64,000 nucleotides of DNA from an uncultured Clostridia bacterium (GCA_946529215.1 CAMMZC010000008.1:17656-81655), one strand, 5' to 3'. Positions 3,001-20,216 are shown, numbered from the stretch's first letter. The notes: generated by a model from the sequence alone, not told the origin. Translations and numbers: made by a program.

Positions 3001-5172
3001 AGTTATTGAACCTTTTCTTAAGTTTTCATAATCTTCCACAGGGTCTCTATCTGAATCTGAAATTGTTACTTCTATAGATTCTTCTTGTACTTCTAGTATA
3101 TATCCTGGTGGTGGTGTAACTTCTTCTATAGTATATGTTCCATAATATAACCCATCTATTTTCAATTTTCCTTTAGCATCGGTTGAGTATATTTTAGCTC
3201 TACTTTTATTACTATTATAACTATTTACACCTGTTAACCAACCTTTTCCTTGTTTATAAATTTTAAATTGACTTCCTTTAAGAGTCATTCCTGTTTCTGA
3301 ATCTTTTTTTATAACACTTAGACTTCCTGTTGGAGTATTGTAAAATACCATCGCTGATGCCTTTGGATTAGATTCGCTTATTGTTCTGCTTTGTGTAGTT
3401 GAAGTTCTTAGATATCTTGATGGTGCCTCTACTTCTTCTGCTGTATATGTTCCCTCTTTTAAACCTTTTAAAGTTAATTTTCCTTTAGTTGTTGTATATT
3501 TTCCTTTGCTTCCTGCAGCTTCTTTTGTAGCATTATTATATTTATAGTCTCCTTCTTTTCCACTTAAATAACCTTCATTTGTTTTTATCATAAATACTGC
3601 TTCATCACTTGTAATAAATTTTCGAGTTTCTCCATCTTTTTTGTGAATAGTTATACTAAAATCTTCAGACTCTGTTTCCTCATCAGGTGGTGGTGGTGGA
3701 TTATCTGGGGTGTTGTAAAATACTACTGTTGAAGGATTTGGCTTTGATGTACTTATAGTCGCAGATTTAGTTTTTGTTGATATTTTATATCCTGTTGGTG
3801 CTTGTACCTCTTCTATTGTATATTTACCCATTACTTGTAATTCTGATAAAGTTATTTTTCCTCCAGATGTTGAATAATTAGTACCACTTGCATGATTATA
3901 ATTATATGATCCAGCACTACCACTTAAGTATTTTCCAGTTGGTGTTTTTATTTTAAATTTTGCTACACCACTTATTAAACTTTTAGTTTTTGAATCTTTT
4001 TTGTTAATTTTTATACTACCATATTTATAATTTATTGTTACATTAGCCTCTGTTGGTACAACCTTATCTTTTACAGTAATAAGCTTTTGGCAAACAGTAG
4101 ACTTGGATTTTGTTAATTTTTCTCCTCCCAAATAACCTGTACTTTCTAGTAACCAAAGTTCAACCTGATATGTATTACTTTTCACATGAAAGTTTACACT
4201 TTTTATTGTCTTACCAGAAATATTTTTTATGTAAAAACTTGTTCCATCTTTTGGAATATTTTCAAGCCCATATATTTTACTTGCATTTGTGTAACTACTA
4301 TCTTTATAAAATCCTATTTTGTTAGACGGTATAGTAGTTCCATCTGCAGCAGTAACTACTACAGAGTCTATCGTTCCTGTATATGTAAGACTTATTGCTG
4401 GATTTACATCAGAAACATTTCTTTCTGTTGCACTTATAGCAGCTTTTTTATACTTTGAATAATTCTTTTTTGCATCTGCTACTGCATTGTTTCCATCAGT
4501 TTCATATTTATATTTTTTTTCTTTAAAAGAATTAAATTTCCACGCACCAGCACTCATAACGCCCTTTTTTCCCATTCTTGTTAACCATGTATTCCAATAT
4601 TTTTTCAAAGCTAATTGTCTTGGTCCATCCATTTCACCGTTTTGGTGATTCGTACCAACCTGTGTTGATGATTTAGTCCAGTTAGACCATTTACACTCTC
4701 CACTATCTATTGAATTAGCCAGTATATATGCTAAAATAGCATTCTCTTCACAATTATAAGTTGCTCCTCCAGAAGCTCCCTCATTTTTTGATGTACAATA
4801 ATCATGTTCAACCATTTCTGTACCATTAATTTTAAAATAATGTTTAACTCTCATATCTGATACAACATTACTAGCCTCATGTTGAACACAATATGTATTA
4901 TGATTTTCATAACCCATATTTACTACACCTGCAAGTGATTGTTCTGCTGTAGTATAATTTGTTCCTAGTAGTTTATTTATTTTATTTCTAATACTTGAAT
5001 TGCCTAAATCATCCCAATCTGCTAATATAACAACATTCGCAGCATTATTACTCTTTATCAATTCTGTATGTCCTTTTAATCTTCTAGTAGCTGCATATAC
5101 TTTTGTTCCATAAGTTAAGAAAACAAGAATTATAATTATAATTGCCAATATTTTCTTTCTAATTTTTGTCAT
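1..5172 (-). CDS. Giant surface adhesin, partial. The N-terminus is in the window and the C-terminus runs off the window start. It has a signal peptide, an N-terminal Cys-containing domain (candidate thioester domain) and many Cna-B-type (isopeptide-type) repeat domains. It is a paralog of the 10183..14730 gene.
   Basis: ATG at complement 5170-5172. The N-terminus MTKIRKKILAIIIIILVFLTYGTKVYAA is a signal peptide. I translated it by hand as ...HNTYCVQHEASNVV...RQLALKKYWNTWL.... No minus-strand stop occurs before position 1, since no minus-strand ORF is listed in the track. Downstream there are recurrent 'G(K)YxΦxEVxAPxGY' Cna-B motifs. It lies 14 bp after the stop of the 5187..9845 gene, so it is co-transcribed. 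Confidence 0.7.
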   Translation of the reverse strand, partial: MTKIRKKILAIIIIILVFLTYGTKVYAATRRLKGHTELIKSNNAANVVILADWDDLGNSSIRNKINKLLGTNYTTAEQSLAGVVNMGYENHNTYCVQHEASNVVSDMRVKHYFKINGTEMVEHDYCTSKNEGASGGATYNCEENAILAYILANSIDSGECKWSNWTKSSTQVGTNHQNGEMDGPRQLALKKYWNTWLTRMGKKGVMSAGAWKFNSFKEKKYKYETDGNNAVADAKKNYSKYKKAAISATERNVSDVNPAISLTYTGTIDSVVVTAADGTTIPSNKIGFYKDSSYTNASKIYGLENIPKDGTSFYIKNISGKTIKSVNFHVKSNTYQVELWLLESTGYLGGEKLTKSKSTVCQKLITVKDKVVPTEANVTINYKYGSIKINKKDSKTKSLISGVAKFKIKTPTGKYLSGSAGSYNYNHASGTNYSTSGGKITLSELQVMGKYTIEEVQAPTGYKISTKTKSATISTSKPNPSTVVFYNTPDNPPPPPDEETESEDFSITIHKKDGETRKFITSDEAVFMIKTNEGYLSGKEGDYKYNNATKEAAGSKGKYTTTKGKLTLKGLKEGTYTAEEVEAPSRYLRTSTTQSRTISESNPKASAMVFYNTPTGSLSVIKKDSETGMTLKGSQFKIYKQGKGWLTGVNSYNSNKSRAKIYSTDAKGKLKIDGLYYGTYTIEEVTPPPGYILEVQEESIEVTISDSDRDPVEDYENLRKGSITIKKIDEETRQSIEGAGFKIKTSNGWLQGTKATTYKYNASYDTATIYRFNNVYSATDNVSYSKANGLKIDGLDDSTYHFYEVEPPTGYLLKHQEGYNANRGYVDTKKEVTISSEDSKYDQNVTITNVKKVSIEGYVWIDTPTAKSQEYNSLYDSRETKVEGITVRLINKENGKTFETSTFKEEDSNDVKYVFDSRIKYSELEKYYVEFDYSELDMFKTTYKDENGNEYQYSNYIPVAFNATARNGSKAMMKNVAPKDIDLTGIATTYTGQNAINTYGIKKCGTFDEKNLIYSNINLGIKKIPQANYSVSQNLAYAKIDINGFTFTYNYGQLGDNSMVIAPTTNWQKVGTISGYTADIYPSDIAYSVAQTDVNKKIKVFVVYRIDITNTTVYNIPELYEENKLRISSLKNYYDGNRYVLEKVYDLKNNNEITKDFDDWSEGADTTRNGKDVKVATYNLDKYKDGIGKNNTITSFIEFRVKDDAIKKILENPNGIIEEYPTEVESNGYHEYTRKDYSWDLNISANNQLHLTQNDIRSSAAPYLIFREHKDKERTIKGMVFEDEIVTKDGQKLGNGVYDSNENKVENIKVDLIEVPTGVTDLRQLSAENIKKLNPAIRYPKDATNKPKATNDAINTDKGGNYNLVGVVPGRYFLRFTYGDGTQKICDTSGKEIKTIVGKNYKSTVVKEVNAKAALNGGTEEEWYRDMDENIKASVALDNLNTRKIANESAEGKSDVMASTAKMSITVENNADKIFDMPKNTNSNSSQVTLSDSKDSKETIYAKYLNTIKAENTFNGLSFGIVEVPKQDAEIQKLITNVKLTNTQGNVLYNGNPETVASQGVVALSDLDNKKNGGSTYVKAEVQEESLYGTNLELTYEVKITNKSDINYYNNRYYWFGEKDENKEVTLTPTDVKDYLDETLTYVAEKSDKDRIVSKGTKTIVTEDEKNAKAEELDLTKWTPLFTNKITNRDARHPTSDNVKIVAQRILSNQDDDMEIVSRAEIKG

Positions 5173-5186
5173 CTTTTTTCCTCCTT

Positions 5187-8100
5187 TCAGTCAAATTTTT
5201 TCCTAATTACTTTTTTCACAATACTATAAACAAGTGTTGTCATAATTACTGCTATAATTAATGTTATAATTGAAAATTTAACTGCTATACCTGTACTAAC
5301 ACTTATAATTAAATCTGCTTGTGATACATCATCATCTTGACTTGAACCCTCATCTTTTACTCCTAACTCATTATAATATTCAGTTATTTCTGCTTTATTA
5401 TTTGTAAGTCCTGTATTTGAATTTGTCATTGTTTTTGTAAGAATTAGAGTTATTTCTTTTGTTTCTCCTGGTTCTATTTTTGTATTAGCTAAGCTTTCTG
5501 TATAAAGTTTATTTCCTGATTGATACCAATCTTTATTAAGCTTAGAGTTAAATTTTAAATCTGATGGTTTATTGTCAACAATTTTTTTCGCATATCCTGC
5601 TAATTCACCATTATTTGTTACTTTTATTTTATATTCAACCATTACAACTGAACCTTTTAAATATTTACCTCTTATCTCAACCTTTGCCAAATTTGTATCT
5701 GAGAATTCTGTTGTTTTGTTTTCTCCTGAATTAGAAACACTAACTTTAGAAATAGTCTTAGATAAATTCAAATCAAACTTTTTGTATTCTACTAATCCTA
5801 TATCTATATTTGTTATATTTTCTTCATTTACAGTAATTGTGTCTGTTGAAGCAACTTTTTTACTTGCATTATTTATATTCATTGTAATAATTTCTACATC
5901 TGAATTGTTATTTTCACTTGTTCCATCAGCTTTATATGTAGTGATACTATATCTTTGATTATCATATTCAAATAATACTACATATTTTCCACTTTCTATA
6001 TTTGTAAAACTATATAATCCATTACTATCTGTTGTTGTACTTGTTATTTCTGAATTTGTTTCTATATTGTATAATGTAACTTTTACTCCATTTATTATCT
6101 CTTCATCAGATTCTCTTTGTCCATTTTGATTTCTATCTAACCAGGCTATACCTGAAATAGCTCCTTTATTTGTATTGTTATTTTCACCTTGTTGATTTGA
6201 TGTATCATCTTTATTGTCTGTTTTCTGATTATCTTCGTCTTGCGAATTGTCACCTGGATTATCTTGACCTGGATTATCTTGACCTGGATTGTCTTCACCT
6301 GGATTGTCTTCACCTGGATTTTCTTCACCTGGATTTTCTTCATCTGGATTATCATCTTCTGGATATATTGGCGCTTTCAAATAATATGTTATTTTTCCAC
6401 TTGATGCAAGCAAAATATCGTCATAAGCATCTGCTTCATTTATTACTTCAAAGTCTTCTAATAATGAAAGCTCTTTTACTTTGCCTTTTATTATTATATT
6501 TTTTTCTTCTTCTGCTTTCAAATTACAATTTATCTCCAATAAATTATAATTATCTGCTTCCTCTCCTCCTGTTAAATTGTATTCACAATCTTTTCCATCT
6601 ATAGTAACTGATTGTAAATCTAAATATTTTGAATACTTATCTTTTAAAATCAAATCATTAGAATCTGAATCTCCAATATTTTTTATTTTTATTGTATATA
6701 TTATTTCATCACCTAAATTAATTGTACTTTTATCATTTTTATTACCAATTAATTCTAATGAAGCTCTTATACCACTTACTTCGTTTGACACTTTGTTTGA
6801 TCTATATTGAACATTATCTGAATCTTTTATAGTACACATTGCTTCTGCATAATTTATTCCATTTATAGAATCTTTTATTTTTATTTCATATTCAACATAA
6901 GCTTCATTATTTGCCTGTATAGAAGGTATTGTAAAATACAATTCATCTGTTTCTACTTCTTGTCTTGGTTCATTTGAAGTATATACTATAGATTTTTTCT
7001 CCATCAAATCATTTATATTTAAATTAACTTGTACATTTTTTTTCTCTTCATTTGTATTATTCTTAATATAAAGCTGATAAATATATGTATATCCATAACT
7101 TACTTTATCATCATCTTTCATATATGCTAAATTTAAATTTGCTTCTAATGCTGCTGGTTCTATTTTGTTTTTTAATGCAAAGTTTTTACTATTGCTACCA
7201 TATCTAATTGTATAGTCTGATTCTATTTCTTGTGTTAGGTTTACATCAGAATTTACTTTTACCATATATTTGTATTCATATGTTTTTCCTGCATTTATGT
7301 TTATTCCATTTTTTTCTAAAGTTCTTTCTGTTTTCGTAACAAAATACTCTTCATCTGTTGTGTAAACATGTTTTTCTTCATCATAAGCTGGATATTTTGA
7401 ATTTACTTCAATTAATGTTGTATTATTTGGAATTGTTGCACTTAAAGATACGTTTTCTATATTTTGAGTACTTGGATTTTGTAATTTTACAGTATAAACT
7501 ATTATCTCTCCTGCTTTTACAGTATCTCCTTCTGATATTGTTTGTCCTCCAACACTTGCAGTAACTTCATATTTTAATTCCGTATTCGAAGTCTGCTCAG
7601 TTCCGCTTCCTGTTTCTGTTCCTTGATTTTCTCCTTGTCCTTCGCTACCTGTTTCTGTTCCTTGATTTTCTCCTTGTCCTTCGCTACCTGTTTCTGTTCC
7701 TTGATTTTCTCCTTGTCCTTCGCTACCTGTTCCTGTTCCTTGATTTTCTCCTTGTCCTTCGCTTCCTGTATTTCCTCCTTGTGTTTGTGCTGCAGAAATT
7801 TGAATCTTTACTTTTTCTGTTCCATTATCTGTATATTTTGTAGCATTTTCATTTGTATATGTCATAACTATTTCTTCTTCGGTGTTTTGTGCATTTTGAT
7901 CAATTTCTACATTTGTATTTATAGAAATTGTTGTTCCCTGTATTGCTTCTCCTAAATAATTTGTTTGTTCTCCTGTTAATTTTATACTTAGTACTTTTTG
8001 TCCGTTTTCTTCTATAACTTTATAATTTTCATCTGTTAATTGTAATCCATTTGGTTGAAATAATTGTGGTTTTTGTACATAAGTTACATTTTTAACTTGA

Positions 8101-9845
8101 CTTGGCAATTTTATTTTTATTTCAGGATTTTTGTATAAATCTTGATTTTCACCATTTGATTCTAGCAATACTTTTAAATTTAATGATTGTGCATTTGTTC
8201 CTGCAATTAATGCAACTTGTTCACTTTGTAGACTTGCTTTTGTTTCTGTCTCTATTAAACCTATATTATAAAAACTTGTTAATGTAAAAGTATTATTATT
8301 CTTATCTGTGTATTTAATTGAGCTACCATCTACAATTTTTTCAAATTCTTTTATTTGTTCTCTTGTATATTCTCCTTTTACTATGCTCTTTCTCGTTTCT
8401 ATTTTAAATGAACCATTACTTAATGGCTTGCTTGTTTTAATTGTTAATGTTTTTACGCCATTTCCTAAATTTATACTTATATTTCCATTTTCATCAACAA
8501 TAATTCCTGTACTTTCATCTGTTTGAGTTTCATTTGTAATTGTTTTATCTCCTATTGTTAAACTCCATGTATTTCCTAATACACTTGCAACTTCGTCTTT
8601 GTTAATTTTAACATTTTTTATTAAATTAAATTTTCCTGTATTTAATGTACTTTGTAATAAATCATTTGCCCTTTCTTCTTTTTTTCCAAATATGCCACCA
8701 TATTCTGTAACTTCTATATCTTCCACTCCATCTATATAGTCAATATGAACCATAGAATATGACGTAATATCTCTTCCATTATCTGCATATATTTTTCCTT
8801 TATATATATTACTTTCTTCTTCTAATTTTGATATATTAGCTATTCCATATCTTACTTCAGCAAGTGATAGTTGAACTTGATCTGCATTTAATTCAATATT
8901 ATTTTGTGTAGTTATTTTTTCATTTATTGTAATATTTTGTGTACTTTCAACTGTGTTTTCTGGGAACTCATAAGTTACTACAATAATATCGCTAAATCCC
9001 TTTATCCAACTAATTTTGCCATCTACTTCAGTATTATTAATATTTATTGTTAAAATATTATTTTCAACTTTGTAATTCTCTGTTGTAAAATCTTGTTCAT
9101 CATTTGTTGATTTTATTGATCTTTTATGAACTTCTACCTTTGTAGCCCCTTCTGGAATTGTTGCTGTAATTTGAGTATTTTTTATAGGATATGCATTATT
9201 TGTTAATTTACTAGTGATCAAAAATTGTACTATATCTTTGTTTTCTCCATTTATTTGATAGTTATAATTTGTTTGTAATTTTGAAGAAAGTTCTGCTTTT
9301 GTATTTTCAGGAACTTTCCATATTACTTTTACATCACTTCCACCATCTATTGTATTACTTCCATCACTTGATGTATATGTTCCATTTAACTTAACTGTAG
9401 TTGTTTGGTTTAAAGTTGAAGCTTGTATTTTATCATCTTCAAAATATTTTATTCCTACTTCTATACTAGCAGTTTCTTCACTATTAATTTGGTTTAAATA
9501 GATAATATTGTTTTCTATCTTATTTATATAACTATTGTCTGTTACCTCATCAAATTTAAACCCTGCATTTTGTAAAGATATTTGTCCATTAAAATATCCC
9601 TGATTTTTTACTGCTACATCTATTTTTAGTTTTAGGTCTTTAGCATCAATACTTTTTTCTATCTCAGTTAGCTCTTCCTCTCCATTTTTGAAATATGCTC
9701 TAAATTGAACATTTTCATGAATTGAAAGTAAGTCTATAGCATAAGATGTTGCTAAAAAACCTGTAATTGCATATTGTCCTAAAAATATAACTAAAATAAT
9801 CAATATGGCAATCCATTTTTTAATAATTGTTTTTACGTCTCCCAT
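5187..9845 (-). CDS. Giant (1552 aa) cell-surface protein with an N-terminal signal/TM, DUF11-type (conserved repeat domain) modules, an SdrD-B/Cna-B-like domain and in-frame low-complexity tandem repeats. The C-terminus is 'SVSTG' + TM + KKVIRKKFD.
   Basis: Long minus-strand ORF with RBS GGAAAGGAAA before the ATG. DUF11-like motif, e.g. IYTIKIKNIGDSDSNDLILKDKY. SdrD-B-like region 'WLDRNQNGQRESDEE...GLYSF...GKYVV'. C-terminal hydrophobic anchor with a basic tail. It is a paralog of the 14751..19700 gene. Confidence 0.8.
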   Translation of the reverse strand: MGDVKTIIKKWIAILIILVIFLGQYAITGFLATSYAIDLLSIHENVQFRAYFKNGEEELTEIEKSIDAKDLKLKIDVAVKNQGYFNGQISLQNAGFKFDEVTDNSYINKIENNIIYLNQINSEETASIEVGIKYFEDDKIQASTLNQTTTVKLNGTYTSSDGSNTIDGGSDVKVIWKVPENTKAELSSKLQTNYNYQINGENKDIVQFLITSKLTNNAYPIKNTQITATIPEGATKVEVHKRSIKSTNDEQDFTTENYKVENNILTININNTEVDGKISWIKGFSDIIVVTYEFPENTVESTQNITINEKITTQNNIELNADQVQLSLAEVRYGIANISKLEEESNIYKGKIYADNGRDITSYSMVHIDYIDGVEDIEVTEYGGIFGKKEERANDLLQSTLNTGKFNLIKNVKINKDEVASVLGNTWSLTIGDKTITNETQTDESTGIIVDENGNISINLGNGVKTLTIKTSKPLSNGSFKIETRKSIVKGEYTREQIKEFEKIVDGSSIKYTDKNNNTFTLTSFYNIGLIETETKASLQSEQVALIAGTNAQSLNLKVLLESNGENQDLYKNPEIKIKLPSQVKNVTYVQKPQLFQPNGLQLTDENYKVIEENGQKVLSIKLTGEQTNYLGEAIQGTTISINTNVEIDQNAQNTEEEIVMTYTNENATKYTDNGTEKVKIQISAAQTQGGNTGSEGQGENQGTGTGSEGQGENQGTETGSEGQGENQGTETGSEGQGENQGTETGSGTEQTSNTELKYEVTASVGGQTISEGDTVKAGEIIVYTVKLQNPSTQNIENVSLSATIPNNTTLIEVNSKYPAYDEEKHVYTTDEEYFVTKTERTLEKNGININAGKTYEYKYMVKVNSDVNLTQEIESDYTIRYGSNSKNFALKNKIEPAALEANLNLAYMKDDDKVSYGYTYIYQLYIKNNTNEEKKNVQVNLNINDLMEKKSIVYTSNEPRQEVETDELYFTIPSIQANNEAYVEYEIKIKDSINGINYAEAMCTIKDSDNVQYRSNKVSNEVSGIRASLELIGNKNDKSTINLGDEIIYTIKIKNIGDSDSNDLILKDKYSKYLDLQSVTIDGKDCEYNLTGGEEADNYNLLEINCNLKAEEEKNIIIKGKVKELSLLEDFEVINEADAYDDILLASSGKITYYLKAPIYPEDDNPDEENPGEENPGEDNPGEDNPGQDNPGQDNPGDNSQDEDNQKTDNKDDTSNQQGENNNTNKGAISGIAWLDRNQNGQRESDEEIINGVKVTLYNIETNSEITSTTTDSNGLYSFTNIESGKYVVLFEYDNQRYSITTYKADGTSENNNSDVEIITMNINNASKKVASTDTITVNEENITNIDIGLVEYKKFDLNLSKTISKVSVSNSGENKTTEFSDTNLAKVEIRGKYLKGSVVMVEYKIKVTNNGELAGYAKKIVDNKPSDLKFNSKLNKDWYQSGNKLYTESLANTKIEPGETKEITLILTKTMTNSNTGLTNNKAEITEYYNELGVKDEGSSQDDDVSQADLIISVSTGIAVKFSIITLIIAVIMTTLVYSIVKKVIRKKFD
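6252..6356 (-). repeat. In-frame 15-bp tandem repeat (about 7 copies, unit acctggatt[a/g/t]tctt[g/c]) encoding (E/D)NPG(E/Q/D) pentapeptide repeats.
   Basis: Direct reading: cacctggattatcttgacctggattatcttgacctggattgtcttcacctggattgtcttcacctggattttcttcacctggattttcttcatctgg. The protein reads DDNPDEENPGEENPGEDNPGEDNPGQDNPGQDNPGDN. Confidence 0.9.
7603..7768 (-). repeat. In-frame 39-bp tandem repeat (about 4.2 copies) encoding GSEGQGENQGTET 13-mer repeats.
   Basis: Direct reading of the repeated unit cgctacctgtttctgttccttgattttctccttgtcctt. The protein reads GSEGQGENQGTGTGSEGQGENQGTETGSEGQGENQGTETGSEGQGENQGTETG. Confidence 0.9.
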
Positions 9846-9929
9846 AATTTTTCCTTTCCTTTCTTAGGCACAAATAGTAAAAAAATATTTTTTTATTTAT
9901 ATATTTCTTCCATACTCTCCTACATTTTA

Positions 9930-9958
9930 ATATTACAACCATATTTTTTTAAAGTCAA
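9930..9958 (-). promoter_or_regulatory. Sigma-A-type promoter for the 5187..9845 gene. On the minus strand it reads TTGACT-17 nt-TAATAT.
   Basis: Reverse complement of 9921-9960 is tattgactttaaaaaaatatggttgtaatattaaaatgta. It lies about 85 nt upstream of the ATG at 9845 and downstream of the terminator at 10142-10177. Confidence 0.45.
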
Positions 9959-10141
9959 TATAGCGTTTTTTATAGCATTTAGAATATACTCAAATTCTTT
10001 TTACGGAAATAGCTTTGTAACTTTTTTGTTTATTTTATTTACATTTTCTTTACATTTTTGTAACAAAGCAATTATATATTTCTCTTTTTATTTAGGGAGA
10101 GTTGAACTTTAATAGGAAAATTTCGATTTTTCCTATACAAT

Positions 10142-10177
10142 AAAAAAAGTTGAACGATAATTCGTTCAACTTTTTTT
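10142..10177. terminator. Bidirectional rho-independent terminator. It is a perfect 8-bp GC-containing stem (gttgaacg/cgttcaac) with a 6-nt loop, flanked by A7 and T7. It ends the 10183..14730 transcript.
   Basis: aaaaaaagttgaacgataattcgttcaactttttttatt read directly. The stop codon of the upstream minus-strand gene is at 10183-10185. Confidence 0.8.
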
Positions 10178-10182
10178 ATTTA

Positions 10183-13100
10183 TTACTTAACAGCGTATTT
10201 CTTTATTACAACAACTCCTGCTGACAACATAGCAAGTGCTACTACTCCTGCAACTGTGTATATAATAATCATTTGTCTATCAGCACCTGTTGGTGGTACT
10301 ATAGTCATTCTTGCTTGAGTCAATTCTTCACTTGGTATTGTAGGTTTAATTATTAAAACTTGTTCATTATTATCTGAGCTATTTCCTGTTCCGTTTGTAA
10401 CTTTAATTAATCTTGCACGGTTTAATAATTCTAAATCCTCATCTGTTTGAGGTATAATTCTATGTGCAACAATTGTTGCTGAATCTGAAGTTTTAACATT
10501 ATTATTAGCTCTTGCAGTATTTTTTTCTGTATATAGCTTTGAATTCCAATTGTTTAATTTAATTACTGTTGTTTTTGCTAATTCATCATCTTGTGATAAA
10601 TTGCTATCTGTTACTACTTCAAATTGTAACTTAGATGATTTTTCTTGATCAAATTGTAATGTCTCATCTAAATAGTCTACTAGCTCATTTACAACTAATG
10701 TAACTTCTTTATTAGGATCTGCTTCACCAAAGTAATAATATTCATTATTGTAGTAGTTAACATCTGAAATATTTGTTACTTTAATTGCATATGTCAATTC
10801 TAAAGTAGAACCATAAATTAATTCATCTAATAATTCTGCTCTTACATATGAACTTCCACCATTTATATTGTTCATATCTCCTAAGTCACTTACACCTTGT
10901 AATTTGTCAGTTTCTGGATTTCCATTAATCTCTAAGTTGTTTTGTGTATTTGTTAATTTTATGTTCGTTATTATTTTTTCTAATTTAGCTTCTTGTTTTG
11001 GCATTTCAATGATACCTAAATTTAGTCCTTCAAATTTGTTTAATGCTAATGTTTCGTTTAGATATTCTACTTTAACATTTGCTGTATTATTTCCATCTGA
11101 TATTTCTTGTTGAGCTTGTGTTTGGGCTCCCTTAAGTTCAGTAGAGTTATTAGGACTATTTTCTACTGTTATAGCTAATTTTGCTGTTCCTGCCATTATA
11201 TTTTGTAAAGTTCCACTGTTTACAGCAATTCTAGTATTTAAGTTATCTACTGCAACAGAACTATTTACATCACCAAGTAGTCTGTACCATGAATCGTTTC
11301 CGTTTTTTAGTCCATTTTTTGCACTTTCATTTTTAACTATAGTTGATTTATAATTTTTTATGTCTATTTCTGTACCATCTATTTTAGAAATCCATTCTTT
11401 ATTTATTGTATTTCCTTCTAGGTCCTTAATTTCTTGTTTTCCATTACCATAAGTAAATCTTAAGAAATAATATCCTGGTACAACTCCGCCAAATGTATAT
11501 TCTCCTTTTTCATCAGTAACTGCCATTGCTGTACTTATTACAGCTTTTTTAGTATTATTTGCTGTATTTATTACTCTATATAATTGAGATACATTTAACT
11601 TATTAATATCATTTACTGATAAAGTATTAATATTTGCAATATTTCCTGATATATCAAGCAATTCTACTTTTACCCCTGAAACAGCTTTTTCTCCATTATC
11701 ATAAACACCATTTCCAAGTTTTTGTCCATCATTTGTTACTACTCTATCTTCAAATACTCTACCTGAAATAACTCTTTCTTCTCCTAATCTAAAGATTAAG
11801 TATGGTGCACTTGAACTTCTAGATTCTTCTATTGTTTGATGTTGCTGATTTGCTTTTAATATTGTTTTTCCTTCCCAACTATAATCATTTCTAGTATATT
11901 TATGATATCCTATACTATTAACTGTTGTTGGATATTTTTCTATAATTCCATTTGGATGTTCTAATATATCATCTATAGCTTTGCGATTAACACTAAAGTT
12001 AATTTTTACTGTAGCTGTTTTATTTACTCCAATATCTGCAATTGGTTTGTTATATTGTGCAGTATTATTTCCTTCTGCTTTCCAATTTCCATCGTTTAAT
12101 GTATATCTATTATTATCAAAAGTATTTGTTAGTTTAGAAATATGTAATGCATTTTCCTTGTATAAATTTGCATCATTAATTACATTTGTATTTGTTATAT
12201 CTATTCTATATCCTACATCTACTTTTAATTCTTCATTACTATTGTTGCTCTTATATACTATCTCTGATGGATAAATATTTGCTGTATATCCTCTAATTGA
12301 TCCAACTTTTTGCCAATTAACTGTTGGTGCTGCAACTTTACTTGTATCACCTTGCATACCATATCTATATGTGTAGTCAAATCCTCTAATATTTATTTTT
12401 ACATACTCTAGGTTTTCAGATAAGCTATAGTTTGCCTTTGGAATTTCTTTAATTCCTAAGTTAATATTATTTAAAACTGCTCCTTCCATAAGCTTATTGA
12501 AAAGATTTCCAGATAAACCATAGGTTGTTTCATCTTTTGTTCCTTTATATGTTGTTGCAATTCCTTTTAAGTCTACGTCTTTTACTGCTACATTATCCAT
12601 TATTGCTCTTGAACCATTTTTTACTATTTGGTTAGCAATTGCTGAATTAAATGCTACTGGAATATATTTTATATATTTATGTTCTTTTCCTTGTGCATCT
12701 TTATATGTTTCTTTTAAACTGTTTAGACCACTATAGTCAAATTCTACATAATAATCTTTTAATTGTGATTGACTAATTAGTTTATCAAATATATATTCAC
12801 CATTTGCATTTGTTAACACATAATCTTTATTTCCAACTTTAATCGCTTTCTTTGTCTTCTTGTCTTTTAATCTTACTTTAACTCCTGCAACCCTTGATTT
12901 AGCTTCTAGACTTGGGTCATATAAACTGTTATATGTGTCACTTTTAACTGTTTTTTGGTCAATCCATACATAACCTTTAATTGATATTTTTTGTTGGTTA
13001 TTGTATTGTTTTGTAACATTCGTATTTTTTGAATTTATAACTGCTGTTCCAAAATCTACCCAATTATTCTTTTTGTCATATCCTTGTTGTGCTGATAAAT

Positions 13101-14730
13101 CATATCCATTTGGAGGTGTTACCTCATAAACTCTATATGTTCCATATTTTAAATTTTTTAAAGTTATTGTAGATGGATATACTTGTGCATTTTTAAAGCT
13201 ATTTTTATAATTATATGCTCCATTTTTTCCACTTAGCCATCCTTCTGATGTTTTAATTTTAAATCCTGCTGAAATTTCTTTTTTAGTATCTCTATCTACT
13301 TTTCTTATTGTTAAATTTCCAACTGTTTTTTTGTTTTTATATGTTTTTGTAACACTTGTTGTTTTTAAACTTACAGTAGCTGTTCCAAAGTATACACCTT
13401 TTTTATTTTTCTCTCCTGGTATAGATTTATATCCATTTTGAGCAGATAAATCATATCCATCTTGACTTATCACTTCCCAAATTTTATATTTACCAAATTT
13501 TAAGTCCCATAATGTAATTGCTCTATAACCACGAGGTACTATTTTACCATTATTTATAAGTATACTTTTTGAATTATCAACAGTATAATATGTCTCTCCT
13601 TTACCAAAAGAATTGTTATATGTATAATGTCCATTATTTCCACTTAACCATCCTTCTGATGTTTGAATTTTAAATCCTGCTATTAATCCAGTTTTAGTAT
13701 TTTTGCTATCTACTTTTTGAATTGTTAAATTCCCATTACTTTTTACATTAAATTTAACTGATTTATTTTGTCTTGTTTCTCCTGGCTTAATAAGTATAAT
13801 ACCTTGACCATGTCCTTTTCCACCATTTCCAGACCAAAAGTCATTTTTAGCTAAAAATAGAATTCTTGCACTTAATACACTTGAGCTAGCATTAACTGTA
13901 ACATTTTTAATTTTTGTTCCATCTGTAACTTTTATATAAAAATTACTATTACTTTTAATTTTTGATATTTGTTTTGTACAAGCTTTATCTGAATATATTC
14001 TTATTTTGTTACCTGCAATTGTTCCATTAACTCCTGTAACAGTTAAAGATACACTATCACCTGTAACTTTTGCTTTAAAAGGTCCATAAGTATTTGCTGC
14101 ATATTCGCTTACTTCTTTTGCACCTGTGATTTCAGCACTAGCTTCTCCTGTTGAATTATTTGAAAAATTTATAGCTTCTTGACGTAGTTTTTTTGCTGCC
14201 TCTTTTGCTTCTTTTTCTTGATGTGAAAAATAATTGTCAATACTGTATTTGTTTTTTTCATTTTTCCAATTATTTTTTAGGAATCCATCACCAAGTGCAT
14301 TTAACCATGTATTCTTATATGACCAAATTGCGATATTTCTTGATGACATTTTATTGCTTCCATCTTTTAAATACATTTCCCTTCTATAATTACCTTTAAA
14401 TAATATATAGTTCATAATTACATTTGCTTTTTTAACAACAGTTTTTCCTGTTCCAATACTTTTAGCAGTTCTTCCATTTATTTCTATTATATCAGTAACT
14501 TTATATTGTCCTCCAGAAAATCCAGTTTTATGTTCAAAACAGAAAGTATCATTTCTTCCTCTTGAAAATCCTCCATTTAATTGAACTATATCACCAATTT
14601 TACCATAATCTTTTATAGTATCTGCTTGATTTAATCCATAAGTTGTTGCATTTACTTCACTAGCAAATAATACTATAGTTGTAAGTATTGTAATAATAAT
14701 ACTTAAAATAAAACTTTTTTTAGTTTTCAT
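10183..14730 (-). CDS. Giant (1515 aa) surface adhesin with a signal peptide, an N-terminal Cys-containing domain (candidate thioester domain), tandem Cna-B-type repeat domains, and a C-terminus 'VPPTG' + TM + KKYAVK.
   Basis: Signal peptide MKTKKSFILSIIITILTTIVLFASEVNA. Motif TFCFEH. Repeated '...GKYKIWEVISQDGYDLSAQNGY' and 'GTYRVYEVTPPNGYDLSAQQGY' Cna-B-type motifs. Hydrophobic C-terminal anchor with a basic tail. Paralog of the partial gene at 1..5172. Confidence 0.8.
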   Translation of the reverse strand: MKTKKSFILSIIITILTTIVLFASEVNATTYGLNQADTIKDYGKIGDIVQLNGGFSRGRNDTFCFEHKTGFSGGQYKVTDIIEINGRTAKSIGTGKTVVKKANVIMNYILFKGNYRREMYLKDGSNKMSSRNIAIWSYKNTWLNALGDGFLKNNWKNEKNKYSIDNYFSHQEKEAKEAAKKLRQEAINFSNNSTGEASAEITGAKEVSEYAANTYGPFKAKVTGDSVSLTVTGVNGTIAGNKIRIYSDKACTKQISKIKSNSNFYIKVTDGTKIKNVTVNASSSVLSARILFLAKNDFWSGNGGKGHGQGIILIKPGETRQNKSVKFNVKSNGNLTIQKVDSKNTKTGLIAGFKIQTSEGWLSGNNGHYTYNNSFGKGETYYTVDNSKSILINNGKIVPRGYRAITLWDLKFGKYKIWEVISQDGYDLSAQNGYKSIPGEKNKKGVYFGTATVSLKTTSVTKTYKNKKTVGNLTIRKVDRDTKKEISAGFKIKTSEGWLSGKNGAYNYKNSFKNAQVYPSTITLKNLKYGTYRVYEVTPPNGYDLSAQQGYDKKNNWVDFGTAVINSKNTNVTKQYNNQQKISIKGYVWIDQKTVKSDTYNSLYDPSLEAKSRVAGVKVRLKDKKTKKAIKVGNKDYVLTNANGEYIFDKLISQSQLKDYYVEFDYSGLNSLKETYKDAQGKEHKYIKYIPVAFNSAIANQIVKNGSRAIMDNVAVKDVDLKGIATTYKGTKDETTYGLSGNLFNKLMEGAVLNNINLGIKEIPKANYSLSENLEYVKINIRGFDYTYRYGMQGDTSKVAAPTVNWQKVGSIRGYTANIYPSEIVYKSNNSNEELKVDVGYRIDITNTNVINDANLYKENALHISKLTNTFDNNRYTLNDGNWKAEGNNTAQYNKPIADIGVNKTATVKINFSVNRKAIDDILEHPNGIIEKYPTTVNSIGYHKYTRNDYSWEGKTILKANQQHQTIEESRSSSAPYLIFRLGEERVISGRVFEDRVVTNDGQKLGNGVYDNGEKAVSGVKVELLDISGNIANINTLSVNDINKLNVSQLYRVINTANNTKKAVISTAMAVTDEKGEYTFGGVVPGYYFLRFTYGNGKQEIKDLEGNTINKEWISKIDGTEIDIKNYKSTIVKNESAKNGLKNGNDSWYRLLGDVNSSVAVDNLNTRIAVNSGTLQNIMAGTAKLAITVENSPNNSTELKGAQTQAQQEISDGNNTANVKVEYLNETLALNKFEGLNLGIIEMPKQEAKLEKIITNIKLTNTQNNLEINGNPETDKLQGVSDLGDMNNINGGSSYVRAELLDELIYGSTLELTYAIKVTNISDVNYYNNEYYYFGEADPNKEVTLVVNELVDYLDETLQFDQEKSSKLQFEVVTDSNLSQDDELAKTTVIKLNNWNSKLYTEKNTARANNNVKTSDSATIVAHRIIPQTDEDLELLNRARLIKVTNGTGNSSDNNEQVLIIKPTIPSEELTQARMTIVPPTGADRQMIIIYTVAGVVALAMLSAGVVVIKKYAVK

Positions 14731-14750
14731 TTAAAATCCTCCCTTCACTC

Positions 14751-17700
14751 TTATATTTCAATTTTTTCTATTAGTAACTTTTTATTTATTAAATATGCTA
14801 GTCCGCAGATAATTATTATAACAGTTAATGTTAATGTAACATAACTTACTGCTGTACCTGTTTTTACACCTATTATTGCATCTGCTGATCCTGCATTTAC
14901 TGTATCTTGGTTATTTTTATCTGTTGTGGTATTTGGTATTCCAAAGCTGTTATAAGCTGCTTCAATTTCTGCTTTGTTGTTTGTAAGTCCTGTATTAGAT
15001 TCTGTCATTTTCTTTGTTAGAGTTAATGTAACTTCTTCTGTCTCTCCTGGCTCTATTATTGTATCTGCAAGACTTGACGTGTATACATTGTTTCCTTTTT
15101 TATACCAATCACTATTAATAGCTGAATTAAACATTAATGATGATGGCAAATAGTCAACTATTGATTTTGCATATCCTGCAACTTCTCCAACATTTGTAAC
15201 TTTTAATTTATATTCTATTACAACATTTGAATCACTTAATTCTTTTGATGGAATTTCTACCTTAGCTAAGTTTTGGTCTTCATAGTCGTAAGTCTTTGAG
15301 CCATTTTTATTTGTTATAATTATCTTACTTATTGTCTTTTCAAGTTTTAGACTGAACGTTTTAGCTTCTGTAAGTCCTAAATCTATGTCTATTACATCTT
15401 GTGTAAGGTTTATGCTATCTGTAAATGCTGCGGTTATTTCTTGATCATTTATCATTCTTGAAGCTTTGACTGCATCTGAATTTATTGATTCATCTATTCC
15501 ATCTGCTTTATATGATGTAACCATATATTTATCTGTGTCATATTCAAATGTAACTATATATTTTCCTTTTGAAAGATTTGATAATTCATAAGTTCCGTCA
15601 CTGCCTGTTGTAGTTGTTATCTCCTCATTTTCATATGTTGCTATTTTATTTGTAACTACATTAATTGCATATACTTTTATTCCTTCTAATAATTCTTCTT
15701 CATCATCTCTTAAACCATCATTATTTTCGTCTTTCCATACTGTTCCTGTAATTGTATATGTTTCTGTGTTTTGATCTCCATAATCAATATCATCTGAATC
15801 ATCTACATTTGGTTCATCCGAATCATCATCTTGCTGATCATCTATATCATCTGAAATATCATCTTGATCAACTTCTTCATCTTTTTCTTCTTCTATTTTT
15901 ATATAGTATTCATTTGTATTTGTTTCATCTACCAGTCCTATATTTCCATATACTAATACTTTGTTTCTTAATTTTAGTATACCTGTTTCTAATGGTAGGT
16001 TGTCTGAAACTTTTGTAGTTATTTGAAGAGTATATTCTTCTGATTGTTTTATACCTAAGTTTTCTATTACAACAATACTATATTCATTATCATCTTCAAA
16101 ATATGGTTCTATTTCATATTCTGTTTCTGCATATTGTTTTCCATTAAGAGTAACTGATTCAATTTCTAGATAATCAGAAATCATTGTTTCTATTCTTAAA
16201 TTATCTGAATCTACATTTCCAATATTTTTTATTTTTGCTATATATGTAATCGTATCTCCTGATTGAACATATCTATCTGTATTTTTAGATGTAGTTGTAG
16301 TAGACAATTGTACTTTTATTTTTTCCGTACTTACATTATCTGTAACTAAATTAGATCTATACACTGAATTATTTTTATCTTTTGCTTCCAATCCTATTTG
16401 TGCATATGTTAATGTTTCTGTAGGTTGTTTTATTGTTGTTTGTAGTTTTATTGTAGCTTTGTCCTTTGGCTTTATAGATTTTATTGTAAATGTCTTTGTA
16501 TTACTTGGAACTTCTTCTGTAGTCTCTCCAGAATGATATTCTATACTATCTATTGAAATTAGATCATTTTCTTTAATTGTTATCTGTATATCTTTTTGTT
16601 CAGAATTTGATATATTATTTACATCTGCAAAATATAAACATCTTTGTCCGTTTTCAAGCTCAGTAACTATATCTCTTCCTACAGGAATAATATTTATTGT
16701 TAATGTAGCAGGTACAAATTTATTTGAAAATTCTTGAGTTTTCGTTTCTCCTTCTACTACTGTAACAGATAATTTTGTAGATTCTGTTTTTATTTCTGTT
16801 AAGTTTTCTTTTACTTTTACCTTATATTTTAAAATTATATATTCGTTTTCATTTAAACTAACATTACTTTTTGTAAGAACAGTATCTGCTTTTTCAATAT
16901 AATATGGTTCATCATATGTATAGTCTCCTGATTCTTCATTTACCCCTGGATATTTTGGGTTAATATCTAATAAAATTGTATTTTCTGGTATAGTTGCTTT
17001 AATTGTTGCGTTTTCCATCTTTTGACTTCCCGAATTTGAAACCTTAACTGTATATTCTATTATTTCTCCCGCTTTTACTTCATCACCTTGTTTTATTTCT
17101 GTTCCTTGAACTTTTGCTGTTAAACTGGTCGTTATTTCTGCTACTTTTCCTGTAAATAGAACTATTTTTGTAGATTCTGCTTGCTTTTGGGTAGTACTTA
17201 AGTTGTTTGTATATGAAACTTTGTAGAAAGTTTCTGTACTTAGATTATATGGTAAATTCTTTGCAATATTTATGTCATAACTAAAGTTTATTTTCGCACC
17301 ATTTGCAAGTGAATTAATTACTATTAAATAGTATTTAGAATCTTTTGTGGCATCTTCTTTCCAATTGTTTTCTGCTTTGCTAATACTTGTTGTAGGATTT
17401 TCTACAGATGTATAATAAACTTTAGCATTTTCCATATTTGTTCTTATTTTACTTGTTCTTTCTATTTTTCCACTTATATTTGCTATTTTTCCAAGTATTG
17501 CTATATTTGATATATCTGTTTCTTCATTATTTACTACTTGCATTTTTACTGTTGCATTTTTAGCTTCTGCATTACTACTAAGTTTAATTTCTTTGTCAGT
17601 TTCTTTTCCAAGTGTTGTAATATTATATTCTTCTATATTGTTTGTTAATATCATTGAATTTTGTGCTACTATATTAATATTAACTTTTTGCTCTCCTTTA

Positions 17701-19700
17701 TCTGCAAAGCTAGTAGCATTTTCGTTTGTATATGTCATAACAATTTCTTCTAAACTATTAGTTGCCATCTTATCTAGTCCAACATTTGCAGTTATATTTA
17801 GTGTTGCACCTTTTACAGCATCACCCTGATAATTTTTTTGTTCTCCTGTTAAATTAATTGTTATAACTTCTTGTCCGTTTTCTTGATTTATTTTAAAATT
17901 ACCTTTTTCTAAGTTTAGACCATTTCCATACATTAAACTACATTTTGCATATATTTTATTTATTTGTTTTGGTAATTTAATTTTTACAACTGGATTTTTA
18001 AATAAATCTCTATATTCACTATCTGTCTCTAATACTGCTGTTATGTGCATTTCTTGTTCTGCTGATGTTGTAAGTGTAATTGGTTCTACTTTTAAACTTG
18101 CTCTTGATTCTGTTTCTTTTAAAGTTATTGTAGAATTTGATGTTGCTGTATTTGTCAAACCATCATTTTTTGTATATGTTACTTTATTTGAATCTTTTAT
18201 TTTAGTTAATTCTTTTATCTCTGTTCTTTTATAATTAGTCTTTTCTATTGTTTTTGTTACTTCATATTTTAAAACTCCATTATTTACAGGTTTTGATGTT
18301 TCTATATTTAACACTTTTGCACCTGATTCAAGAGCAACTATTATATTTCCACTTTCATCTGTTTCATTTGTGTTTGTAATTGTTTTAATATTACTTGCTT
18401 GATCTTGTATGCTTATATTCCATTGACTTCCCAACACATTTTCAATATTTGCTTTGTTAAATTTAATGTTTTTGTATATGACTGATAATTCTTTTTCTTC
18501 TTCGCCTTTTAGTGCTTTTGACTCTTGTTCTAATATCTCAAGTTTTTGTAATACACTTGCATAATCTATATTAACTTCTGTTTTTGTTATATACTCTTTT
18601 TGCTCTCCAGCATATATTTTTCCTTTTGCTATTTCTGATTGAGTTTCTTTTTCTGTTATAGTCGCAAAATTTTCTTTATTTTCTGAAATAGTCGTTTCTA
18701 CACTTTTAGATAATACTTTATCATTATATGTATAGATTGAAGAATTGGCAGTAATTTTTGAATTTGTAATTTCGACTGTTTCTGGATATTTTAATGTAAC
18801 TACAAATTCATCACTTGCATTTTTTTGCCATACTATTTTGTTATTTTGACCATTTGCAACTCTTATAATTAACTTCCCATCTTTATATTCATAATTTGAT
18901 GATAAAAATTCTTTATCTCCATTTGTTGAAGCTGTTGTCCTTTTATGTACTGTAACAGTTTCAGCTTCTGCTGGAATATTTAATTCTATATTTGTATCTC
19001 TTACAGGATAAGAATTATTTTCTATTTTACTTTTAACTAAAAGTTGAACTATTTTTTTGTTTGTTCCATCTTCATTATATGTAGCATTTGTTAATACTTC
19101 TGCACTTAATACTGAATTTATATTTTCAGGATATGTCCAATTTAAGTTAAGCTCAGCTTTGCCTTTTATTTGTGCACTATTTTTACTATTAACATAGTTT
19201 CCTGTTAAATTGATTATAGATGTTCTTGATAAATAGTCTATATCGAATTCTTGCAAATTAGTAAATTCTATTCCAACTTCTACTGTTTTTATATCACCAT
19301 CATTTATTTGTTTAAAAGTCAGTGATTTTTCATCAATGTTACTAATATATTCACTTTTTGTATCTGTTTTAAATTTAAAATTTGCATTCTCATCTAATTC
19401 TATTTTTGCATTAGATAAATATCCATCTTTCTTAACACCTAACTCAAATGTAACTTTTAAATCTTGTTTGTCTATCGCAGCTGTAGTATTTAGTGTTTTG
19501 TTGTTTGCAAAATATGCTTTAAATTCGATATTTTGATTATTTACTTCTGCTGTATCAATAGCATAGCTTATCGAACTTGACCCAATTTGAGCCATCTGAA
19601 TTAAGTTTGAGCCAACCATACTTAAATCTGCCATAGTAATCGTAAAGATAGACGCTATTGCACAAGTTTTTTGAATAATTCTTCTTCCTGTGGTGTTCAT
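14751..19700 (-). CDS. Giant (1649 aa) cell-surface protein and paralog of the 5187..9845 gene. It has DUF11-type modules, an SdrD-B/Cna-B-like domain and an acidic low-complexity linker. The C-terminus is 'GVKTGTAV' + TM + KK.
   Basis: The N-terminal region is homologous to the 5187..9845 product (IEFKAYFANNK... versus VQFRAYFKNGEE...). DUF11-like motif ITYIAKIKNIGNVDSDNLRIETMISDYLEIESV. Region 'WKDENNDGLRDDEEE...GTYEL..GKYIV'. RBS AAGGGAGGAAAAG. There is 20 bp to the next gene. Confidence 0.8.
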   Translation of the reverse strand: MNTTGRRIIQKTCAIASIFTITMADLSMVGSNLIQMAQIGSSSISYAIDTAEVNNQNIEFKAYFANNKTLNTTAAIDKQDLKVTFELGVKKDGYLSNAKIELDENANFKFKTDTKSEYISNIDEKSLTFKQINDGDIKTVEVGIEFTNLQEFDIDYLSRTSIINLTGNYVNSKNSAQIKGKAELNLNWTYPENINSVLSAEVLTNATYNEDGTNKKIVQLLVKSKIENNSYPVRDTNIELNIPAEAETVTVHKRTTASTNGDKEFLSSNYEYKDGKLIIRVANGQNNKIVWQKNASDEFVVTLKYPETVEITNSKITANSSIYTYNDKVLSKSVETTISENKENFATITEKETQSEIAKGKIYAGEQKEYITKTEVNIDYASVLQKLEILEQESKALKGEEEKELSVIYKNIKFNKANIENVLGSQWNISIQDQASNIKTITNTNETDESGNIIVALESGAKVLNIETSKPVNNGVLKYEVTKTIEKTNYKRTEIKELTKIKDSNKVTYTKNDGLTNTATSNSTITLKETESRASLKVEPITLTTSAEQEMHITAVLETDSEYRDLFKNPVVKIKLPKQINKIYAKCSLMYGNGLNLEKGNFKINQENGQEVITINLTGEQKNYQGDAVKGATLNITANVGLDKMATNSLEEIVMTYTNENATSFADKGEQKVNINIVAQNSMILTNNIEEYNITTLGKETDKEIKLSSNAEAKNATVKMQVVNNEETDISNIAILGKIANISGKIERTSKIRTNMENAKVYYTSVENPTTSISKAENNWKEDATKDSKYYLIVINSLANGAKINFSYDINIAKNLPYNLSTETFYKVSYTNNLSTTQKQAESTKIVLFTGKVAEITTSLTAKVQGTEIKQGDEVKAGEIIEYTVKVSNSGSQKMENATIKATIPENTILLDINPKYPGVNEESGDYTYDEPYYIEKADTVLTKSNVSLNENEYIILKYKVKVKENLTEIKTESTKLSVTVVEGETKTQEFSNKFVPATLTINIIPVGRDIVTELENGQRCLYFADVNNISNSEQKDIQITIKENDLISIDSIEYHSGETTEEVPSNTKTFTIKSIKPKDKATIKLQTTIKQPTETLTYAQIGLEAKDKNNSVYRSNLVTDNVSTEKIKVQLSTTTTSKNTDRYVQSGDTITYIAKIKNIGNVDSDNLRIETMISDYLEIESVTLNGKQYAETEYEIEPYFEDDNEYSIVVIENLGIKQSEEYTLQITTKVSDNLPLETGILKLRNKVLVYGNIGLVDETNTNEYYIKIEEEKDEEVDQDDISDDIDDQQDDDSDEPNVDDSDDIDYGDQNTETYTITGTVWKDENNDGLRDDEEELLEGIKVYAINVVTNKIATYENEEITTTTGSDGTYELSNLSKGKYIVTFEYDTDKYMVTSYKADGIDESINSDAVKASRMINDQEITAAFTDSINLTQDVIDIDLGLTEAKTFSLKLEKTISKIIITNKNGSKTYDYEDQNLAKVEIPSKELSDSNVVIEYKLKVTNVGEVAGYAKSIVDYLPSSLMFNSAINSDWYKKGNNVYTSSLADTIIEPGETEEVTLTLTKKMTESNTGLTNNKAEIEAAYNSFGIPNTTTDKNNQDTVNAGSADAIIGVKTGTAVSYVTLTLTVIIIICGLAYLINKKLLIEKIEI

Positions 19701-19782: not shown

Positions 19783-20040
19783 TATATAGTTTTTTGAATA
19801 TTTAAAATTAGCTTACGGCTTTTCATCTATGCCATTTTTTTACATTTTTATTACATTTTTGTTACCTAAAAAACATAAATTGACACTCTATTATTATTAT
19901 ACGCTTTTTTTCCTAATTTTGCAAGTGATTTGGTTAATTTTTTAAAGTTTTTATGTAACTTTTTCTTTTGTCACATTTTCAAATTAATTTCATATTATAA
20001 AATATTATTAAATATATATGTGATAGAAAGGTGTGATTAC

Positions 20041-20196
20041 ATGAATAACAATGATATGTCTAGTTTAATAAATATGCTATCCAAAATGGATACAAATCAG
20101 TTAGCTAATGGTATTAACCAACTAAATCAAATGCTTAGTAATGAAGATAAACAACGTATTATACAGGCTTTAAATAATCAAAATAAACATCAATAG
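20041..20196 (+). CDS. Small (51 aa) N/Q-rich hypothetical protein (MNNNDMSSLINMLSKMD...).
   Basis: ATG preceded by AAAGGTG. The listed ORF 19930..20196 has no RBS at its first ATG. It shares the 'LINML(S/K)K' motif with the next ORF. Confidence 0.4.
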   Translation: MNNNDMSSLINMLSKMDTNQLANGINQLNQMLSNEDKQRIIQALNNQNKHQ

Positions 20197-20216
20197 CAAA
20201 AAAGGAAGGATAAAAA

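Follow-up and report, generated by a model that had tools for sequence, protein, structure and literature searches.

The 64,000-nucleotide stretch of DNA from an uncultured Clostridia bacterium analysed here (GCA_946529215.1, CAMMZC010000008.1:17656-81655; hereafter the window, with positions counted from its first letter) has a G+C content of 28% and carries four very large minus-strand genes, G1 to G4, which adjoin minC, mrdA, mreD, mreC and mreB. Each of the four encoded proteins ends in a pentapeptide closing with Thr-Gly, a hydrophobic segment and a lysine-rich tail, and the nature of these ends is the subject of this analysis. On sequence comparison the giants fall into two families, A (G1 and G3, 38-47% identical) and B (G2 and G4, 43% identical), with no BLASTP match between the two. 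Family A is built of DUF11/CARDB-like repeats, an SdrD_B domain and a terminal Ig-like domain, and family B has SpaA and SdrD_B stalk domains. In G1 these elements lie between a signal peptide and the candidate C-terminal sorting signal; in G2 the signal peptide is followed by an N-terminal domain with thioester-domain motifs, then by the stalk and another such C-terminal signal. SpaA, SdrD_B and DUF11 stalk domains are typical of sortase-anchored adhesins. A phmmer search of the entire G1 and G2 against PDB sequences returned one SdrD B-domain match and otherwise nothing useful.

By inspection, N-terminal signal peptides are present in G1 (MGDVKTIIKKWIAILIILVIFLG...SYA/ID), G2 (MKTKKSFILSIIITILTTIVLFASEVNA/TT) and G4 (MTKIRKKILAIIIIILVFLTYGTKVYA/AT), and G3 has one with a weaker h-region that also ends SYA/ID. 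The remainder of G4, which runs off the start of the window, was read from a sheep-rumen metagenome scaffold with identical DNA, giving a complete protein of 1798 amino acids (aa; L002:14674-20070). The giants are arranged as two A-to-B pairs, G3 being followed by G2 after 20 nucleotides (nt) and G1 by G4 after 14 nt, with 337 nt between the pairs. The same pairing, with gaps of 14-35 nt, recurs in dozens of uncultured gut Clostridia species, often in two or three copies, and the cluster usually lies beside minC/mrdA/mreBCD (window 1-19700; loci L004, L005, L006, L031 and most of L007-L082).

Translation gives the C-termini ...DLII-SVSTG-IAVKFSIITLIIAVIMTTLVYSIV-KKVIRKKFD for G1, ...MTI-VPPTG-ADRQ-MIIIYTVAGVVALAMLSAGVVVI-KKYAVK for G2 and ...AII-GVKTG-TAVSYVTLTLTVIIIICGLAYLI-NKKLLIEKIEI for G3; that of G4 reads FTI-TPPTG-ENRS-ITTIYAIAGIISLIILSTGIVII-KKKVL, its signal falling just outside the window (L002:19957-20070). 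Each hydrophobic segment has 23-24 residues, the tails are rich in KK, and the residues that follow the TG number 33 in G1, 33 in G2, 34 in G3 and 32 in G4. Sortase substrates have been defined by a TG located 17-45 residues from the C-terminus (PMC4155245), and all four tails have it in this range, together with the hydrophobic segment and at least two basic residues. Leu is absent from position 1 of all four, where S, G, V or T stands instead. A preliminary description of this DNA had held that no giant ends in LPxTG and that the three complete ones have the tripartite layout of a sorting signal; both statements agree with the translations (SVSTG, VPPTG and GVKTG), and the layout is conserved in relatives as well as present in G1-G3. 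The end coordinate given there, 14760, stops before the GVKTG codons (14856-14870). The description had further argued from a TG core kept across unrelated protein families. Since G1 and G3 are paralogs, the complete giants provide two independent cases of the motif, not three; the TG is indeed kept across the two families and in their relatives, and an argument that has two cases in the window becomes strong once the relatives are added.

For these relatives, species-representative genomes were scanned with the family-A terminal domain as query, giving 131 relatives, of which 77 loci were kept, all from uncultured Clostridia assemblies (goat, rabbit, chicken, mouse and human gut). The closest relative is RGIG2666, from goat omasum, where the A-to-B pairing is present and, as in other relatives, often beside minC. 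When the C-terminal parts were used as queries in a homolog search, 79 family-A and 14 family-B fragments were obtained, none longer than 656 aa, counts that represent a lower bound; nearly all of them close with xxxTG, followed by a membrane segment and a basic tail. Full-length relatives were taken from the genome-contig loci and not from these fragments. The tails are conserved across about 70 related species. In the related loci TG stands just before the membrane segment in 104/104 family-A and 82/82 family-B C-termini, and among distinct tails both residues are invariant, in 96 of 96 from family A (77 loci) and 76 of 76 from family B (71 loci). No other position is invariant (T and G have 4.32 bits each, their neighbours 1.2-3.6 bits), Thr is never replaced by Ser, Ala or Val in any of the distinct tails, and 27-39 residues follow the TG. 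As a comparison, MreD and other housekeeping membrane proteins of the same loci that have a C-terminal membrane segment and a basic tail carry TG at this place in 0 of 10 cases. Judged from these alignments, the conservation of TG before the membrane segment is far beyond chance.

The two families differ in what surrounds the TG. The family-A pentapeptide follows the consensus [SG][VI][KSR]TG, within the extended consensus E-[DN]-D-x-[GS]-S-A-[DN]-[VL]-I-[IL]-[SG]-[VI]-[KSR]-T-G, and GVKTG ranks third among its variants (12/104). Position 2 is V, I or L, and P in 3/96 distinct tails from three species (SPSTG, SPATG and GPKTG), so that in some orthologs the canonical Pro appears at the equivalent site. 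The family-B pentapeptide is [TVMI]-P-[PNAST]-T-G, followed by a polar spacer (extended consensus [IV]-T-P-x-T-G-x-[ND]-[RK]); among 76 tails position 1 is T in 58, M in 8, V in 7, Y in 2 and I in 1, and position 2 is P in 67. The family-B motif sits after a variable linker, yet it is the most conserved element of the region. In family A strong conservation extends to the 12 residues upstream of the motif, which belong to the fold. One protein, P0093, was considered as a module swap that joins a family-A domain to a B-type signal, and was rejected; its tail is near-identical to true B tails, and its weak family-A match probably comes from the shared SdrD_B domain.

The same tag occurs on other proteins of the lineage. 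In RGIG2666 two unrelated genes are inserted between A-B pairs (L031:15134-19553, minus strand, JAFROW010000005.1), the first encoding a C1 peptidase of the papain family, which contains a Big_2 domain and ends in LPYTG, a membrane segment and a basic tail, and the second a VWA/SdrD_B protein that ends in IPPTG with the same two elements. A further protein with an LPYTG tail is found in L051, and a 2676-residue protein with a TPPTG tail in L047 scores 17.8 bits against TIGR01167, above the cut-off of 15.9. The presence of canonical LPxTG sequences in the lineage offers the best indirect sign that its genomes encode a sortase. The window also contains, at 37945-41886 on the minus strand, a 1313-residue secreted-type protein with S8 subtilase, Kelch-repeat and fn3 domains, which has neither a C-terminal membrane segment nor an xxxTG signal; the tag is therefore not on every large exoprotein here.

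When the tails of the related loci were compared with curated models of sortase signals, 46 of 75 family-B tails matched the LPXTG_anchor model TIGR01167 at E<=0.015, which is roughly its cut-off, the best at 1.7e-6. Replacement of the pentapeptide by SQNSE reduced the matches to 4 of 75, so the match depends on the motif and not on the membrane segment alone. Minor family-B matches were to other sortase-signal models (NPXTG and LAETG). Family-A tails matched the LPXTG model weakly, 17/77 versus 6/77 in the motif-less control (E<=0.1), and TIGR03065 was matched by 1/77 of them, equal to the control. Stray weak matches to the PID-CTERM, CoaP and GVDTG models, together with the failure of the searches described below to locate a sortase, leave room for an enzyme of another kind, whether exosortase-, archaeosortase- or rhombosortase-like or novel, that recognises the tails. 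Such an enzyme is highly improbable: the stray matches concern one tail each, those to PID-CTERM and CoaP survive in the motif-less control (the GVDTG match is lost), the dominant motif-dependent match is to the LPXTG anchor, and the T-G dipeptide and the LPYTG relatives point to a sortase.

The setting of the family-A motif was examined in an AlphaFold model that covers the C-terminal 196 residues of G1 and is based on a 52-sequence alignment (predicted local distance difference test score, pLDDT, 92). The model is an Ig-like sandwich in which S-V-S closes the last beta-strand, T-G forms the two junction residues, and a helix follows (fragment residues 164-195). Foldseek searches with this terminal domain returned generic Ig-like matches only (CARDB, RhoGDI, the pilin BcpA and the AgI/II C-terminal domain). 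A structure of this kind also suits plain C-terminal membrane anchors that are never cleaved, in which T-G would be a structural strand-to-helix junction, most plausibly in family A. The predicted position of S-V-S at the end of the last strand, with T-G as the sole residues before the helix, fits this explanation, as do the conservation of the 12 upstream residues as fold, the weak match of the family-A tails to LPXTG models, the lack of a sortase in any sequence examined (window, extensions and related loci) and the fact that the NVQTG of CbpA is uncleaved by SrtB in vitro. A hinge, however, does not need the absolute invariance of Thr seen in 96 + 76 tails. Nor does a plain anchor account for a family-B motif that is the most conserved element in spite of a variable linker upstream and on which the match to the hidden Markov model depends, for a tag, canonical LPYTG included, on unrelated proteins of the lineage, or for the occasional proline in place of V/I at family-A position 2. 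Plain membrane anchoring is on balance unlikely; since the conservation of the A motif is partly structural, it stays alive as an explanation for family A.

Taking the observed layout of the tails together with their conservation, their resemblance to curated models, their co-occurrence with canonical LPYTG and the architecture of the proteins, we put at about 0.7 the probability that the C-termini of the giants are variant LPXTG-class cell-wall sorting signals, carried by Sec-exported surface adhesins that a sortase anchors to the wall. This reading is well supported for family B and moderately for family A; the existence and class of the sortase, cleavage and wall linkage are what we infer. 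The giants would be exported via Sec, and the hydrophobic segment and Lys-rich tail would keep them membrane-bound. A sortase with its gene at another place in the genome would then cut between the invariant Thr and Gly and pass the Thr carboxyl to a peptidoglycan precursor, so that a stalk of 1500-1800 residues would become covalently fixed to the wall.

Several observations weigh against sortase anchoring. The tails of the window itself fall short of the curated models: G4 scores 12.6 bits against the TIGR01167 cut-off of 15.9, G2 scores 13.4 against the PF00746 cut-off of 20, and G1 and G3 have no TIGR01167 or PF00746 match. The A-type motif lacks both a proline and a linker, and the model indicates that part of its conservation is structural. 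The nearest proline-less clostridial precedent, CbpA NVQTG, is uncleaved by SrtB in vitro (PMC4155245). No sortase was found in the 64-kb window, in extensions of about 13 kb or within 10 kb of 77 related loci, in a search that used only two seed sequences, S. aureus SrtA and SrtB (phmmer), and the pattern T[LIVM]xTC, and that covered 1.49 Mb, with every open reading frame (ORF) of 100 aa or more from the window and from 82 loci, not whole genomes. The four T[LIVM]xTC matches obtained were spurious: giant ORFs contained three of them, and the fourth was in an antisense ORF of 100 aa.

Nor did Pfam scans reveal a sortase among the window ORFs that lack annotation or in the contig extensions. 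The preliminary description had placed the cognate sortase outside the window, and the phmmer, pattern and Pfam scans of the window are in keeping with this. The left extension (5 kb) contains a WG-repeat protein, an aminotransferase, an M48 peptidase and LemA, and the right extension (8 kb) an M29 peptidase, RelB/YafQ, ThrRS and an EssC-like ATPase; neither includes a sortase. In the closest relative, the 3 kb that separate L031 from L006 were considered as a possible site of the gene and proved to be the interior of another family-A giant. The EssC-like protein, about 8 kb past the right end of the window (L083:21350-22409), has 1525 residues with FHA and FtsK/SpoIIIE domains and suggests, by its domain content, a type VII secretion system nearby. 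The RelB/YafQ toxin-antitoxin pair is at L083:15884-16391. Three minus-strand ORFs of the window have no Pfam match of any kind: 48157-51192 (1011 aa), 61856-62554 (232 aa) and 62608-63663 (351 aa).

The N-terminal domain of family B bears on what kind of protein would be anchored. An alignment of this region from 56 species shows LYCxxH, with its Cys invariant, then QxAxW, and then a Gln about 245 residues past the Cys. Thioester domains are marked by the cysteine of [YFL]CΦζ, by TQXXΦW and by the glutamine of ΦQζΦΦ (PMC6194298), and the family-B N-terminus has all three motifs in the correct order. The family-B profile matches BaTIE of B. anthracis (6FWV), at E 3.7e-12 over the whole chain and 2e-4 over the stretch of the thioester region. 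Pfam and NCBIfam thioester-domain models gave no match to G2, and an AlphaFold model of its N-terminal domain was unusable (pLDDT 37, from 3 sequences; a homolog search added one relative). The equivalent domain of G4 occupies about 3300-5090 of the window. BaTIE has a class II thioester domain, isopeptide stalk domains and an LPATG anchor, and is sortase-anchored. The profile alignment extends over the thioester-domain region and the stalk, with the motifs in matching order; the Cys-Gln spacing of family B is long, and the intervening stretch aligns to the beta-sandwich insert of BaTIE. Family B differs in being three times longer and in having xPPTG instead of LPATG. From these sequence features family B looks like a giant TIE-type adhesin with a putative thioester. 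Coordinates of the giants and of their parts are collected in Table 1.

Table 1. Position of the giant genes in the window and of the C-terminal and N-terminal elements of their products
Feature	Position	Strand	Remarks
G1	5187-9845	minus	family-A giant surface protein, 1552 aa; paralog of G3
G1 pentapeptide SVSTG	5289-5303	minus	aa 1515-1519
G1 hydrophobic segment IAVKFSIITLIIAVIMTTLVYSIV	5217-5288	minus	24 aa, from translation; predicted helix
G1 basic tail KKVIRKKFD	5190-5216	minus	from translation
G2	10183-14730	minus	family-B giant surface protein, 1515 aa; paralog of G4
G2 pentapeptide VPPTG	10285-10299	minus	aa 1478-1482
G2 polar spacer ADRQ	10273-10284	minus	directly after VPPTG
G2 hydrophobic segment MIIIYTVAGVVALAMLSAGVVVI	10204-10272	minus	23 aa, from translation
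G2 basic tail KKYAVK	10186-10203	minus	I-K-K core at least 90% conserved in family B
G2 N-terminal adhesin-like domain	13741-14646	minus	about aa 29-330; thioester-domain motifs
G2 FCFEH cysteine, C64	14539-14541	minus	invariant in 56 species
G2 glutamine, Q309	13804-13806	minus	at least 90% conserved
G3	14751-19700	minus	family-A giant surface protein, 1649 aa; G2 follows after 20 nt
G3 pentapeptide GVKTG	14856-14870	minus	aa 1611-1615
G3 hydrophobic segment TAVSYVTLTLTVIIIICGLAYLI	14787-14855	minus	23 aa, from translation
G3 tail NKKLLIEKIEI	14754-14786	minus	from translation
G4	1-5172	minus	family-B giant, runs off the window start; start 14 nt past the G1 stop

The thioester-domain motifs of family B and its close pairing with family A also raise the question of a pilus-like covalent A-B assembly. 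Here a class-B-type sortase would couple B, via the Thr of its xPPTG signal, to a Lys in the A protein transcribed with it, and the xVxTG of A would attach the product either to the wall or to more A subunits, an arrangement comparable to Cpa and the backbone pilin of S. pyogenes. Tight A-to-B pairs (14-35 nt) in dozens of species, two signal flavours that mirror the (E/Q/V)(V/P)PTG pair of Spy0129, and thioester-domain motifs in B, as in Cpa, are what such an assembly would be expected to show. It is nevertheless quite improbable, since pilus operons normally encode their own sortase and no sortase gene was found in or within 10 kb of the 77 loci, the giants exceed pilins in size by a factor of 5-10, no lysine of a pilin motif was identified, and the A motif is predicted to abut the membrane helix directly. 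Only slight credence is given to the idea that the A/B giants are a two-component covalent fibre, built by a class-B-type sortase encoded elsewhere and fixed to the wall by the A signal. It is just as doubtful that this fibre would be, by analogy, a giant and sortase-unlinked counterpart of the S. pyogenes Cpa/FctA pilus in an uncultured gut Clostridia lineage. A weaker variant of the proposal is restricted to the A-type signal, which would represent a new class of sortase specificity.

Two tandem repeats lie in frame within G1. One, at 7604-7769, has 4.3 copies of a 39-nt unit (GSEGQGENQGTET) that are 97% identical, and the other, at 6250-6364, has 7.7 copies of a 15-nt unit encoding (E/D)NPG(E/Q/D). 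G3 has an acidic, D/E-rich linker where G1 has its repeats, which are probably flexible linkers of variable length. Between minC and G3, on the plus strand at 19930-21135, are three small N/Q/S-rich ORFs (88, 142 and 114 aa) without a family match; L004 and L031 have ORFs of about the same size at corresponding places.

If sortase anchoring of the giants is correct, a gut and rumen Clostridia lineage (goat, sheep, rabbit, chicken, mouse and human) displays paired adhesins of 1500-1800 residues by means of non-canonical signals. Since the standard LPXTG models miss all four tails of the giants, surface-proteome predictions would under-count wall-anchored proteins. The proline-less [SG][VI][KSR]TG offers a clean test case for sortase specificity, and the A-type signal could inform the status of the similar NVQTG motif of CbpA in C. 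difficile. The finding extends a well-known anchoring mechanism and does not reveal a new system.

Compared with the canonical LPXTG signal of housekeeping sortases (TIGR01167/PF00746), the giants are alike in the tripartite layout and in having T-G 32-34 residues from the C-terminus; they differ in lacking Leu at position 1 and, in family A, also Pro at position 2. The B-type signal joins the known xPxTG signals as a further member. A literature search for PPTG-type signals with a clostridial sortase, and for a sortase in TANB77, found nothing, and the literature examined contains no description of a proline-less [SG][VI][KSR]TG fused to the last strand. A clostridial system for comparison is SrtB of C. 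difficile, which cleaves SPKTG, PPKTG, SPSTG and SPQTG between T and G, and cleaves neither LPETG nor the NVQTG of CbpA (PMC4155245). A further study reports that only some C. difficile candidates are sorted in vivo (PMC5569036). The SrtB substrates CD2831 (PPKTG) and CD3392 (SPKTG) are clostridial xPxTG proteins with collagen-adhesin-like stalks and proven T/G cleavage. Their TG is followed by D, that of family B by [AE]-[DN]-[RK], a short acidic or polar spacer in both cases, whereas position 1 is T, V, M or I here and not S or P. The preliminary description was thus right that SrtB uses (S/P)PxTG motifs (PMC4155245), and neither VPPTG nor TPPTG belongs to that type, position 1 being V in G2 and T in G4. 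CbpA, a clostridial stalk adhesin, is the closest sequence analogue of SVSTG and GVKTG, with a proline-less x-V-x-T-G, a membrane segment and a basic tail; it has a polar spacer, DQSN, after the TG, whereas in family A the hydrophobic segment begins at once.

A further precedent is found in S. pyogenes, whose class B sortase Spy0129 accepts EVPTG of the backbone pilin Spy0128 and VPPTG of the adhesin Cpa, with the consensus (E/Q/V)(V/P)PTG (PMC3019223). These are the substrates of the FCT-2 pilus, Cpa (VPPTG) and Spy0128 (EVPTG/QVPTG), and TIGR03065 covers the QVPTGV class. The locus described here differs from the pilus locus in encoding giants, not pilins, and in that no sortase turned up in the window or up to 10 kb from the 77 loci. 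With respect to the S. pyogenes consensus, position 3 of family A is S, K or R and not Pro, and the TPPTG of G4 differs at position 1. On the other side of the comparison, G2 and Cpa have the same VPPTG, Cpa is one of the thioester-domain adhesins, to which family B also seems to belong, and Spy0129 tolerates Val at position 2, where family A has it in xVxTG. By this analogy, the VPPTG of G2 is a proven sortase motif elsewhere, and Val at position 2 also has a precedent.

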